The notes under the pieces were generated by a model. That model saw only the letters and a program-made list of their open reading frames with translations. It did no database searches and was not told the DNA's origin. From the sequence record NC_054906.1: DNA of 64,000 nt, one strand, 5' to 3'. Position numbers and translations under genes: made by a program. Below, in pieces: positions 4,192 through 5,781 of this stretch (its first letter is position 1; every line of letters begins with the position of its first letter). Source of the stretch: Enterobacteria phage RB18.

Positions 4192-4267
4192 TGGTCGAGG
4201 CAGTAGGGATCGAACCTACGACCCAGGACTTAGAAGGTCCTTGCTCTTCCTTCTGAGCTATGCCCCG
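4192..4267 (-). tRNA. tRNA-Arg (anticodon UCU)
   Basis: Hand-folded cloverleaf: acceptor CGGGGCA/TGCCTCG, D-stem GCTC/GAGC, anticodon loop CTTCTAA, T-loop GGTTCGATCC, encoded CCA. Confidence 0.8.
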
Positions 4268-4271
4268 TAAT

Positions 4272-4347
4272 TGGGGTGACCGATGGGAGTCGAACCCATG
4301 ACTACGAGAATCACAATCTCGAGTTCTACCAACTGAACTACGGCCAC
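4272..4347 (-). tRNA. tRNA-His (anticodon GUG)
   Basis: Hand-folded cloverleaf: acceptor GTGGCCG/CGGTCAC, anticodon loop TTGTGAT, T-loop GGGTTCGACTCCC, encoded CCA. Confidence 0.75.
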
Positions 4348-4461
4348 ATTAATACCTACTCCAACAATCAAGATGTCTTCACACGAAATTAAGAGAAGAG
4401 TGATCAGTTCAACCCTTATAATCGCGTCAAGTAGATATTAATGTGACAGTTGTCACAAATT

Positions 4462-4536
4462 TGGCGGACGTGATAGGATTCGAACCTATAACCAATCGCT
4501 TAACAGGCGATCGCTCTGCCATTGAGCTACACATCC
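4462..4536 (-). tRNA. tRNA-Asn (anticodon GUU)
   Basis: Hand-folded cloverleaf: acceptor GGATGTG/CACGTCC, anticodon loop CTGTTAA, T-loop AGGTTCGAATCCT, encoded CCA. Confidence 0.75.
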
Positions 4537-4540
4537 AAAT

Positions 4541-4627
4541 TGGTGGGGAGTGATGGAGTCGAACCACCCGAGTCGCAATGACAATGGATTTACAGTCCAC
4601 ACCGCTACCTCTACGGGATAACTCCCC
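4541..4627 (-). tRNA. tRNA-Tyr (anticodon GUA), class II with long variable arm
   Basis: Acceptor GGGGAGT/ACTCCCC, anticodon stem-loop GTGGA-CTGTAAA-TCCAT, 15-nt variable arm, T-loop GGTTCGACTCC, encoded CCA. Confidence 0.75.
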
Positions 4628-4633
4628 TTAATT

Positions 4634-4708
4634 TGGTGGCCCTGGGTGGAATTGAACCACCATCTGGCGATTATGAGTCGCTTGCTTGAACCTTCCAGCT
4701 ACAGGGCC
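4634..4708 (-). tRNA. tRNA-Ile (anticodon CAU, Ile2/lysidine type; Met not excluded)
   Basis: Acceptor GGCCCTG/CAGGGCC; anticodon stem-loop GCGACTCATAATCGC is the Ile2-type context; encoded CCA. Confidence 0.7.
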
Positions 4709-4709
4709 T

Positions 4710-4785
4710 TGGTGCTGATTGACGGAATCGAACCGCCGACCTTCTCATTACAAGTGAGTTGCTCTACCTATTGAGCTAAATCAGC
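4710..4785 (-). tRNA. tRNA-Thr (anticodon UGU)
   Basis: Acceptor GCTGATT/AATCAGC, D-stem GCTC/GAGC, anticodon loop CTTGTAA, T-loop GGTTCGATTCC, encoded CCA. Confidence 0.8.
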
Positions 4786-4790
4786 AAAAC

Positions 4791-4880
4791 TGGCGGAGGC
4801 GATAGGATTTGAACCTATGAGTCGCCGGAGCGACTGCCGGTTTTCAAGACCGGTGCATTAAACCACTCTGCCACGCCTCC
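4791..4880 (-). tRNA. tRNA-Ser (anticodon UGA), class II with long variable arm
   Basis: Acceptor GGAGGCG/CGCCTCC, anticodon loop CTTGAAA, long variable arm, T-loop GGTTCAAATCC, encoded CCA. Confidence 0.8.
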
Positions 4881-4886
4881 AAATAT

Positions 4887-5537
4887 TTATATATTGTTAA
4901 TTTGATTTAGAATTCTTTTTGCTTGAGTATGACTTACGCCAATATGCTTAGCATATTTAGACAATTCGCCACGTTTAGAAAAATCATATAATTTAGAAAT
5001 TTCTATTCTTCTTTTTCTTTCATCCGCAGAAACTTTTGCTTCGTTCGCTTTTGCTATTTTACGTTTAGCTTCTTGAGAATGAGTTTTACCAGCAAAGCCA
5101 TTCTTCATTAATCCATTTGAAGACCATCCTTTTAATTTTCCGTTAGAATGTGCCTTTTTAACACCCAATGAAATTAATTCGCGCTGCTGATCTGTCATAG
5201 GATAATTATTTATATGGTCCCATCCACCTTCACCTCCAAGTTTTAAATTATACACATCTGGTCTATTTAAAAACTCTTCTGTGACAATATTTTTCTCGGC
5301 TTCAAGCATAGATTCTTTATCGTCAAAATACTCTAATATTTCTTTAGAAAAATTTTCTATACCATATTTATCTTGGGCTCTTTTTAATAATTTACCAGAA
5401 CCCATATATCCATCATCTAAATTTTCGGTAGAATGCACACCAATATAAATTTTATTATTAATTTTATTTGTTATTTTATAAAGATAAAAATGCATATCAG
5501 TCCCTAATAAAGAACTGAGCGTCTCACGACGAGTCAT
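4887..5537 (-). CDS. segB: GIY-YIG homing endonuclease SegB-like, inserted within the tRNA cluster
   Basis: N-terminal GIY-YIG signature YLYKITNKINNKIYIGVHS...GYMGSG; basic C-terminal DNA-binding-like region; sits between tRNA-Gly and tRNA-Ser as segB does in T4-type phages; true start may be the internal ATG at 5495, which has a better Shine-Dalgarno. Confidence 0.8.
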   Translation of the reverse strand: MTRRETLSSLLGTDMHFYLYKITNKINNKIYIGVHSTENLDDGYMGSGKLLKRAQDKYGIENFSKEILEYFDDKESMLEAEKNIVTEEFLNRPDVYNLKLGGEGGWDHINNYPMTDQQRELISLGVKKAHSNGKLKGWSSNGLMKNGFAGKTHSQEAKRKIAKANEAKVSADERKRRIEISKLYDFSKRGELSKYAKHIGVSHTQAKRILNQINNI

Positions 5538-5541
5538 AAAT

Positions 5542-5615
5542 TGGAGCGGATAATGAGAATCGAACTCACATCATCAGATTGGAAGTCTGAGGTAATGCCA
5601 TTATACGATATCCGC
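5542..5615 (-). tRNA. tRNA-Gly (anticodon UCC)
   Basis: Acceptor GCGGATA/TATCCGC, anticodon stem-loop TCAGA-CTTCCAA-TCTGA, T-loop GAGTTCGATTCTC, encoded CCA. Confidence 0.8.
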
Positions 5616-5620
5616 AAATT

Positions 5621-5707
5621 TGGTGCGAGAAGTGGGACTCGAACCCACAAGGAAATCATTCCGCAGCATTTTAAGTGCTGTGCCTTTACCAATTTGACCA
5701 TTCTCGC
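5621..5707 (-). tRNA. tRNA-Leu (anticodon UAA), class II
   Basis: Acceptor GCGAGAA/TTCTCGC, anticodon loop CTTAAAA, long variable arm, T-loop GGGTTCGAGTCCC, encoded CCA; abuts tRNA-Gln as a Gln-Leu dimer. Confidence 0.8.
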
Positions 5708-5708
5708 G

Positions 5709-5781
5709 CTGGGAATAAAGGACTCGAACCTTTGCATCCTGGAATCAAAATCCAGTGCCTTACCAACTTGGCTAATTCCCA
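5709..5781 (-). tRNA. tRNA-Gln (anticodon UUG)
   Basis: Acceptor TGGGAAT/ATTCCCA, anticodon stem-loop CTGGA-TTTTGAT-TCCAG, T-loop AGGTTCGAGTCCT; CCA not encoded. Confidence 0.8.

Follow-up and report, generated by a model that had tools for sequence, protein, structure and literature searches.

An endonuclease cassette in the tRNA-Pro slot of the ten-tRNA cluster of Enterobacteria phage RB18

Enterobacteria phage RB18 carries, in the 64,000-nucleotide stretch analysed here (NC_054906.1, called the window below), a cluster of ten transfer RNA (tRNA) genes with an intact open reading frame (ORF) for a GIY-YIG homing endonuclease between tRNA-Gly and tRNA-Ser. By alignment, this is the standard tRNA transcription unit of AR1/KIT03-type Tequatrovirus phages, and its composition is already known and annotated. 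We consider the cluster best explained, with a probability of about 0.8, as a unit of this type that was remodelled by a homing endonuclease, such that it would represent the widespread 11-tRNA T-even set in which the tRNA-Pro(UGG) slot has been filled precisely by a 655-bp GIY-YIG cassette.

The cassette in the tRNA-Pro slot and its genomic context

The 655-bp cassette starts right after the 3' end of tRNA-Gly (...GCTCCAATTTA) and stops 6 nt before tRNA-Ser, and a four-way alignment places it in the slot that is held by tRNA-Pro in Aplg8, RB14, and T4. Fifty-five records show the order Gly-seg-Ser, while most sampled Tequatroviruses show Gly-Pro-Ser, which together amount to the occupied/empty polymorphism typical of homing endonuclease genes. 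Jiaodavirus offers both states as well. In the empty site of vB_VIPKPNOM02, tRNA-Gly is followed after 5 nt by a T4-like tRNA-Pro, while in the occupied site of KP13MC5-5, tRNA-Gly is followed by the leader, the endonuclease, and a divergent tRNA-Pro whose 5' end overlaps the stop codon. Endonuclease-bearing alleles are therefore without a T4-type tRNA-Pro in both genera, with a divergent Pro gene in Jiaodavirus and nothing in Tequatrovirus, as is expected if the Pro gene or its junctions are the target and the occupied allele must be immune. There is precedent in T4, whose SegB prefers a site in the tRNA-Asn of segB-less phages, and homing removes the tRNA markers of the recipient (PMC2330249). 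Taken in general terms, an endonuclease-driven replacement of tRNA-Pro appears likely from these alignments, whereas the narrower proposal that the T4-type tRNA-Pro gene or its junctions are the specific target would have slightly less than an even chance of being right.

ARAGORN found exactly ten tRNA genes in the whole window, all on the minus strand (as are all features described below) between positions 4192 and 5781, and the Rfam tRNA model RF00005, which is independent of ARAGORN, placed 10/10 of them above its gathering score. The two methods agree with an earlier sequence-only reading of this DNA in coordinates, anticodons, and order (Gln-Leu-Gly-endonuclease-Ser-Thr-Ile-Tyr-Asn-His-Arg). 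RF00005 scores were 59-74 bits for nine of the tRNAs and 30.2 bits, against a cut-off of 29, for tRNA-Tyr(GUA), which has a long variable arm (4541..4627). This low score is of no concern, because the gene is identical at 85/87 positions, and throughout the variable arm, to the T6 tRNA-Tyr, which was seen on northern blots and is functional (PMC13096335). The tRNA with a CAU anticodon (4634..4708; 75/75 identical to RB14, AR1, and Aplg8) appears as 'Met' in the ARAGORN output. Its E. coli matches (76-82% identity, in 5345/5426 genomes) are annotated as tRNA-Ile in 12/12 rows sampled across the ranking, and the identical gene in RB14 is annotated as Ile; on these two grounds the Ile(CAU) assignment stands. 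Judged by similarity, the body of this tRNA is ileX/ileY-like (tRNA-Ile2) and not that of a tRNA-Met, with a lysidine modification being presumed.

The T4 set had been given correctly in the sequence-only reading as eight tRNAs (Gln, Leu, Gly, Pro, Ser, Thr, Ile, and Arg), and T4 does not carry the ten-tRNA set of the window. Seven of the eight T4 isotypes are present in the window, while Pro is absent, Tyr, Asn, and His are extra, and Ile and Arg are non-T4 alleles. The surroundings are those of T-even phages, with the e.6-e.8 genes and rnaC/rnaD on one side and trna.2-trna.4, ipI, and 57B on the other, as judged by synteny with the AR1, T4, RB14, and Aplg8 annotations. The absence of Pro, the presence of Tyr, Asn, and His, and the T4-like flanks, all of which had been claimed earlier, were thus borne out. 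The T4 region resembles that of the window in its position between e.8 and trna.2, its promoter region, rnaD/rnaC, and the overall layout, and its Gln, Leu, Gly, Ser, and Thr genes are 87-100% identical to those of the window. It differs in that tRNA-Pro is present, Tyr, Asn, and His are missing, the Ile and Arg alleles are divergent, and segB lies between Ile and Arg. The tRNA genes of the window are co-oriented with spacers of 0-6 nt, except for a 114-nt spacer between tRNA-Asn and tRNA-His.

The region is 98-99% identical to AR1, KIT03, and vB_Eco_EL, and the AR1 RefSeq record (NC_027983) lists these ten tRNAs and this endonuclease without any change of order. These three phages, KAW1E185, teqdroes, and others share with the window the gene order, the ten tRNAs, and the endonuclease between Gly and Ser, and differ from it by point differences only. 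As one colinear piece of 98-99% identity, the 1590-bp cluster is carried by 22 records (17 phages without GenBank/RefSeq duplicates), about 21 further records differ only by the loss of a ~190-bp block holding tRNA-His, and in RB51 and RB68 the endonuclease is present while the 3' end of the cluster is different. The 11-tRNA set of Aplg8 (Gln-Leu-Gly-Pro-Ser-Thr-Ile-Tyr-Asn-His-Arg), also found in Sf22 and ZN18, and the 10-tRNA set of RB14, RB3, and T2L are 97-100% identical to the window over Ser-Thr-Ile-Tyr-Asn-(His)-Arg, and at least 80% of this Ser-to-Arg sub-cluster is present in 185 records. Both types keep tRNA-Pro and lack the endonuclease. The RB14 order is the Aplg8 set minus His, and relative to the window RB14 is without exactly the 114-nt leader plus tRNA-His, while the window and AR1 have the Aplg8 set with the endonuclease cassette in place of Pro. 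In T4 the order is Gln-Leu-Gly-Pro-Ser-Thr-Ile-[segB]-Arg, and in T6 it is Gln-Leu-Gly-Thr-Ile-Tyr-[segB]-Arg. Similarity of T4 and T6 to the other phages ends inside tRNA-Ile, which matches that of the window at 47/77 (T4) and 50/77 (T6) positions, and their tRNA-Arg matches at 50/80; such divergent T4-type alleles have been termed 'isoacceptor' genes (PMC2330249). As the alignments have it, the eight-tRNA set of T4 is a separate derived state, in which segB and divergent Ile/Arg alleles replaced Ile-Tyr-Asn-(His)-Arg. Variation in these sets is long known: Petrov et al. (2010; PMC2993671) counted 7 tRNAs in T6 and RB15, 8 in T4 and RB32, 9 in T2 and RB51, and 10 in RB3, RB14, RB18, RB26, and LZ2, and Brok-Volchanskaya et al. 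(2008; PMC2330249) reported four extra tRNA genes in T2L compared with T4, cleavage sites in the tRNA-Met, -Tyr, -Asn, and -Arg genes of T2L, and the absence of segB from T2L, RB1, and RB3.

A SegB-like chimera as the proposed agent of replacement

The endonuclease gene (4887..5495) encodes a free-standing GIY-YIG protein of 202 amino acids, identified as a SegB-like chimera by Pfam, by its membership of PHROG 314 (homing endonuclease), and by alignments. The GIY-YIG domain (PF01541) scored 26.8 bits against a cut-off of 22.6, SegE_GIY-YIG was also above its cut-off, and NUMOD3, with 20.1 bits, fell just under its cut-off of 20.4. The ATG at 5495, which AGGGA precedes, coincides in alignments with the start of both T4/T6 SegB and the 202-residue KP13MC5-5 homologue. 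It is almost certainly the true start, judging by this alignment, and the longer ORF that has been annotated from 5537 probably extends too far upstream.

The two halves of the gene have different relatives. Over the first ~285 nt it is 88-100% identical to T4/T6 segB and 61-85% identical to the Klebsiella phage gene, whereas over the last ~320 nt the values are ~50-65% for T4/T6 segB, which means no detectable relationship, and 76-91% for the Klebsiella phage gene. The catalytic half is ~99% identical in DNA to T4/T6 segB, and BLASTP against SegB found no similarity past residue 117. Residues 1-96 are those of T6 SegB save for one position, with Tyr17 and Gly19 kept; T6 SegB is biochemically active, and mutation of these residues abolishes its activity (PMC13096335). 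GIY-YIG enzymes of the SegB kind consist of separate modules, a linker connecting the catalytic to the DNA-binding domain (PMC2330249), and in view of this build a swapped DNA-binding half at a new insertion site suggests a SegB catalytic domain that was joined to a different DNA-binding domain and thereby retargeted. The name segB, which the sequence-only reading had given to this gene, thus fits the catalytic half, and orthology to T4 segB fails because the DNA-binding half is unrelated. The label 'segD', used in AR1 and HY01, was rejected, as the protein has 38% amino acid identity to T4 SegD in the GIY-YIG half only and lies at a different locus (T4 segD is located between genes 23 and 24).

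Like the endonuclease of the window, SegB of T4 and T6 is encoded by a free-standing GIY-YIG gene in the tRNA cluster with a hairpin sequestering the ribosome-binding site and a presence/absence polymorphism. Unlike it, SegB has 221 instead of 202 residues, its C-terminal ~100 residues are unrelated, its gene sits between tRNA-Ile (or Tyr) and tRNA-Arg instead of between Gly and Ser, and it goes with the loss of Tyr, Asn, and His instead of Pro. Closer in architecture is the unannotated 202-residue Seg protein of Klebsiella phage KP13MC5-5 (Jiaodavirus), which is 77% identical in amino acids over its full length and follows tRNA-Gly directly with the same 46-nt leader; its gene is followed by the divergent tRNA-Pro allele, whereas tRNA-Ser follows in the window. 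The catalytic half of the KP13MC5-5 gene is far less similar to that of the window (61-85%) than the DNA-binding half (76-91%). The same C-terminal module occurs in 59 records, annotated as 'SegB-like', 'truncated SegB-like', 'segD', or 'homing endonuclease', and in the literature on the endonuclease in the Pro slot only 'SegB-like' or 'truncated SegB-like' annotations turned up. More distant, stand-alone homologues of the C-terminal DNA-binding domain (~41% identity) were observed in addition among ORFs of 'unknown function' in other T4-like tRNA clusters: the trna.1 ORF of T2/T2L (AJ880101, 776-970; LC348380, 67735-67929) and phrog_16521 ORFs (such as 1985-2449 of locus L010, from vB_VIPKPNOM02). 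From this similarity, they are probably decayed or domesticated remnants of endonucleases.

The 46-nt leader of the cassette (5496..5541) contains a 9-bp hairpin (5497-5518) that sequesters the Shine-Dalgarno sequence AGGGA. This hairpin has a folding energy of -14.1 kcal/mol (z -2.2), compared with -19.4 kcal/mol (z -7.6) for that of T4 segB, and it is kept with sequence changes in the KP13MC5-5 homologue (3102-3125 of its locus), echoing by analogy the translational control that was proposed for T4 segB. A tRNA-Pro relic upstream of the endonuclease ATG, which the shared GCTCAGTT in our first alignment had seemed to offer, was rejected, since the leader is conserved in KP13MC5-5 with an intact tRNA-Pro downstream; because of this conservation the leader counts as part of the cassette. 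On the other side of the endonuclease gene, the D-arm of the Klebsiella-type tRNA-Pro and the 5' end of tRNA-Ser agree at 12/15 positions (TTGGTAGCGTGGGAG vs TTGGAGGCGTGGCAG), which is suggestive of a microhomology joint between the two genes, but no relationship is seen in the 12 nt that separate the stop codon from this motif.

It could be objected that the ORF is a decayed, inactive remnant and that tRNA-Pro was lost by an unrelated deletion. The annotators of RB51 and RB68 indeed wrote 'truncated SegB-like', the protein having 202 against 221 residues, and the tRNA region of T4 is dispensable (PMC2330249). However, the ORF is intact, its catalytic domain is essentially that of the active T6 SegB, the 202-residue architecture, whose C-terminal motifs are NUMOD3-like and helix-turn-helix-like, recurs in another genus at 77% identity, 41 records share the C-terminal domain at 99% identity or more, and the cassette occupies precisely the Pro slot and leaves no other scar. 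We therefore find decay and unrelated deletion very improbable and favour remodelling by the endonuclease. In such a course of events, the chimeric endonuclease would cut the T4-type tRNA-Pro gene or its junctions in cassette-free phages, and repair of the break would convert Gly-Pro-Ser into Gly-seg-Ser. The tRNA-His gene with its structured leader would be a second movable module, common to Karamvirus and Jiaodavirus phages. The phage tRNAs would supplement the host pool, with U34 species reading the A-ending codons overused by the AT-rich phage; tRNA-Tyr and tRNA-Asn would meet a high phage demand, and tRNA-Tyr may also buffer against tRNA-Tyr-cleaving defences.

A number of points weigh against this explanation. 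Occupied and empty genomes do not differ in their Gly and Ser genes, and no co-conversion tract marks homing. We infer the target of the chimeric endonuclease only from alleles that are without a T4-type Pro gene, and the comparisons are compatible with a domain swap and a transfer between genera in either direction. Furthermore, the census consists of BLAST coverage classes and sampled rows, and the middle promoter of the unit, predicted from sequence, was recognised by eye.

Module exchange, codon demand, and host defence

Apart from the Pro slot, the boundaries of the tRNA genes are of interest for the exchange of modules. With the exception of Gln, the ten tRNAs encode CCA; the next base is A or G, the spacers are A, ATTT, ATTA, AATTT, AATTAA, and the like, and the motif GGTTCRANTCC occurs in 8/10 of the tRNAs. 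The block of T-arm, acceptor, CCA, and spacer (AAWTT) forms a repeat family at the gene boundaries, its Asn and Ser copies being 85% identical, and corresponds to the recognition region of SegB, which is 27 bp long and borne by tRNA genes (GGTTCRANTCC...CCAR), with cleavage just after CCAR (PMC2330249). The T2L homologue of tRNA-Asn(GUU), which lies at 4462..4536 in the window and is supported by ARAGORN and Rfam, holds the preferred cleavage site of T4 SegB (PMC2330249). We propose that breaks at such boundaries, combined with repeated micro-homology, would provide a simple route to the precise gain or loss of whole tRNA genes. The difference between RB14 and the window is bounded by GCCAAAT and CCCAAT, and on the alignments as a whole the differences between tRNA sets map to insertions or replacements by homing endonucleases and to module exchange at tRNA boundaries. 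Remodelling driven by SegB has been demonstrated experimentally (PMC2330249). The cassette-like turnover of tRNA genes that had been suggested from the sequence alone is accordingly supported by the direct comparison of RB14, Aplg8, T6, and the window.

Exchange extends to phages outside the genus as well. The tRNA-His module has counterparts of 80-92% identity in T4-like phages of Klebsiella, Enterobacter, and Citrobacter (Karamvirus and Jiaodavirus), and the Tyr-Ile-Thr stretch (4537-4789) is ~90% identical to rV5-like phages (FFH2, O157 typing phage 5). Records labelled as Campylobacter phage are ~90% identical over the same stretch, and for these a wrong label or contamination is possible. 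A recent host origin of the extra tRNAs was rejected, as the best E. coli matches of the Ser-to-Arg part reach ~81% and lie on 72-110-kb plasmids, and the full-length identity of tRNA-Ile(CAU) to ileX/ileY does not exceed 82%. SegB-type amplification would leave tandem repeats of tRNA or endonuclease genes, and none was found in the window. By analogy with T6 SegB, the chimeric enzyme could amplify neighbouring tRNA genes under pressure from host defences.

For codon demand, 72 long ORFs of the window (~20,000 codons) were compared with 65 annotated E. coli K-12 genes. Tyr codons (42.9 per 1000 in the phage, 19-25 in the E. coli sample) and Asn codons (58.5 vs 34-43) are commoner in the phage, His codons are rarer (13.8 vs 20-22), and the Pro codon CCA is enriched (16.8 vs 5-11.5). 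Demand can thus justify the Tyr and Asn tRNAs but not tRNA-His, and it argues against losing tRNA-Pro(UGG). One may still ask whether the set differs from that of T4 mainly by adaptive tuning of tRNA supply to the codons of the phage, which the Tyr and Asn frequencies and the strong enrichment of the A-ending codons read by the shared U34 tRNAs (TTA, GGA, TCA, ACA, ATA, and AGA) would favour. Yet a tRNA-His is present in spite of its rare codons, the tRNA for an enriched codon is gone, and the boundaries of the differences coincide with endonuclease cassettes. Moreover, phages that are ~97-99% identical in this region carry 9, 10, or 11 tRNAs (published T-even counts are 7-10; PMC2993671), so that codon usage cannot be what differs between them. 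Tuning as the main cause is accordingly improbable, and the suggestion that it drives the turnover holds for the demand for Tyr and Asn and fails for His and for the loss of Pro, the main driver being homing endonucleases.

A second alternative is that the phage retains its Tyr, Asn, and His tRNAs in order to counter tRNA-cleaving defences of the host. The T6 tRNA-Tyr rescues infection from Septu, which T4, without a tRNA-Tyr, cannot escape (PMC13096335), and the T5 tRNA-Tyr rescues infection from retron-Eco7 (PMC11555353). As a homologue of the T6 gene, the tRNA-Tyr of the window may likewise rescue infection from Septu, and the failure of codon demand to explain tRNA-His speaks for a countermeasure, too. 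Tyr, Asn, and His (4272-4627) are three of the four tRNAs of the GUN-anticodon, queuosine family, and the phage prefers the NAU codon in all three codon families (73-79%). GUN-anticodon tRNAs are the target class of colicin E5-type anticodon nucleases. This membership is worth noting and proves nothing: by a rough estimate the chance of 3/3 falling in the family is ~0.02, and an AT-rich NAU bias would favour the same outcome. On the other hand, no defence system targeting tRNA-Asn or tRNA-His was found in the literature searched, the T6 tRNA-Tyr is itself cleaved and works only via dosage (PMC13096335), and where countering has been shown, the nuclease cuts the variable loop and not the anticodon. 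We thus hold retention of all three as countermeasures to be unlikely, with the published counter-defence role applying to tRNA-Tyr only. Overall, the earlier interpretation is partly supported, as it was right about modular turnover and overstated the tuning to codons and anticodon nucleases, and remodelling by homing endonucleases remains our preferred explanation for the composition of the cluster.

The structured RNA at tRNA-His and the remainder of the unit

The 114-nt spacer between tRNA-Asn and tRNA-His folds with a minimum free energy of -33 kcal/mol (z -4.55), and 0/200 shuffled sequences were as stable. It consists of a 19-nt linker with a small palindrome (4443-4461) and a 95-nt structured RNA leader (4348..4442), whose 3' end lies exactly at G-1 of tRNA-His(GUG) (4272..4347, with an encoded G-1:C73 pair); this tRNA and the leader are missing together from RB14-type phages. 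The 95 nt adjoining tRNA-His recur in conserved form in Jiaodavirus and Karamvirus, there preceded by a tRNA-Gln gene and not by tRNA-Asn. With the invariant 5' end of tRNA-His as a search anchor, eleven IMG/VR loci were added, for a total of twelve distinct versions, and a structured element of 94-107 nt was seen 5' of tRNA-His in 18/18 examples from at least three phage genera (at 3709-3803 of L006, which is KP13MC5-5, 1583-1677 of L009, and 1584-1690 of L011, and in L012-L022). A pattern search of 511 kb of sequence found the element only beside tRNA-His.

All twelve versions fold into a closing helix of 14-15 bp, a variable middle hairpin, and a short hairpin with the loop UC(U/A)UGAU, the 3' strand of the closing helix ending exactly at G-1 of tRNA-His in 12/12 of them; the copy in the window has a 14-bp closing helix and the loop UCUUGAU. 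Of the cells in the closing helix, 95.8% pair, double compensatory changes are seen at three pairs, and covariation scores 0.308, compared with 0.229 +/- 0.026 in shuffles (0/500 as high) and at most 0.12 with the partners slid. U.G pairs are frequent on the tRNA-sense strand, which favours an RNA over a DNA palindrome. The Rfam search of 4348-4461 gave no match at E<=1, on which grounds a degenerate tRNA, a known ribozyme, and a known small RNA were rejected for the spacer; a hammerhead was rejected as well, because its CUGAUCA has a C at the position of the catalytic G in the CUGAUGA box, and no hammerhead model matched.

By analogy with the species 1 and 2 RNAs of T4, the 95-nt element might be a processing or stable-RNA module that RNase P sets free when it cuts at the 5' end of tRNA-His, which we put forward with low confidence. 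As a stable or processing RNA not described so far, it might for instance direct spacer excision or the retention of G-1 on tRNA-His, and the observation itself may be new. In a joint reading, two linked modules would be at work, namely an undescribed ~95-nt RNA fused to tRNA-His in Tevenvirinae and moving between genera, and a retargeted, domain-swapped SegB that erases the T4-type tRNA-Pro while it spreads. No description of these two modules was found in the literature and databases searched, and we offer the combination tentatively, as somewhat doubtful.

The unit would be transcribed from a MotA-type middle promoter (5851..5877) composed of a TTTGCTTTA box, a 12-nt spacer, and a TATTAT -10 element. 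T4, in which a middle promoter sits just upstream of the tRNA cluster (PMC2330249), has almost the same sequence over the ~95 nt that precede tRNA-Gln. A sigma-70 promoter within the cluster was rejected, as 10 found against 9.6 expected in a generic scan is background. The first gene, tRNA-Gln(UUG) (5708..5781), has no encoded CCA and abuts tRNA-Leu(UAA) (5621..5707; 87/87 identical to T4), which is followed by tRNA-Gly(UCC) (5542..5615; 73-74/74 vs T4 and RB14). Two alleles of tRNA-Gln are observed that differ by eight changes in the anticodon arm, mostly compensatory stem changes (CACTGGATTTTGATTCCAGG vs CATAGCACTTTGACTGCTAG). One is common to the window, RB14, and AR1 (74/74), the other to T4, T6, and Aplg8 (66/74 vs the window), and this distribution cuts across the rest of the cluster, which by sequence indicates mosaic recombination. 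Downstream of the cassette, tRNA-Ser(UGA) (4791..4880) encodes CCA, which is absent in the T4 allele, and is 90/90 identical to that of endonuclease-free phages, and tRNA-Thr(UGU) (4710..4785) is supported by ARAGORN and Rfam.

The last tRNA gene, tRNA-Arg(UCU) (4192..4267), has an acceptor stem with G2:C71, G3.U70, G4:C69, and A73, features that in an acceptor stem mark alanine identity. In RB14 and six IMG/VR contigs, A3-U70 takes the place of G3.U70, and the G3 variant occurs only where tRNA-His lies directly upstream (the window, AR1, Aplg8, and IMG/VR locus L015). From these bases, mischarging of the G3.U70 tRNA-Arg by alanyl-tRNA synthetase is possible. Further along the unit lies a 116-residue ORF of PHROG 3355 without a Pfam match (3823..4173), whose stop codon abuts the start of rnaD. 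This ORF, between tRNA-Arg and rnaD, is present in AR1, present and unannotated in Aplg8, and absent in T4 and RB14, and a PHROG 3355 member also adjoins the tRNA cluster of a Klebsiella phage (vB_VIPKPNOM02, locus L010, 243-611). The stable RNAs rnaD (species 2; 3709..3823; 115/116 vs T4) and rnaC (species 1; 3564..3702; 136/139 vs T4) follow, and the unit is closed by an intrinsic terminator (3490..3513) with a 10-bp stem of 7 GC pairs and a subsequent T-run, a terminator also being annotated in Aplg8.

The ten-tRNA arrangement is not novel, as it is annotated in AR1 and many other genomes, and variable T-even tRNA sets, remodelling by SegB, and phage tRNA-Tyr genes that counter defence have already been published. 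The chimeric SegB, as a natural domain-swap experiment in GIY-YIG specificity, and the conserved tRNA-His leader without an Rfam family are modest leads. What the cluster provides is a clean natural example of selfish endonucleases, and not translational optimisation, deciding the tRNA content of a T4-like phage, with the tRNA for CCA, a codon favoured by the phage, sacrificed in the window.

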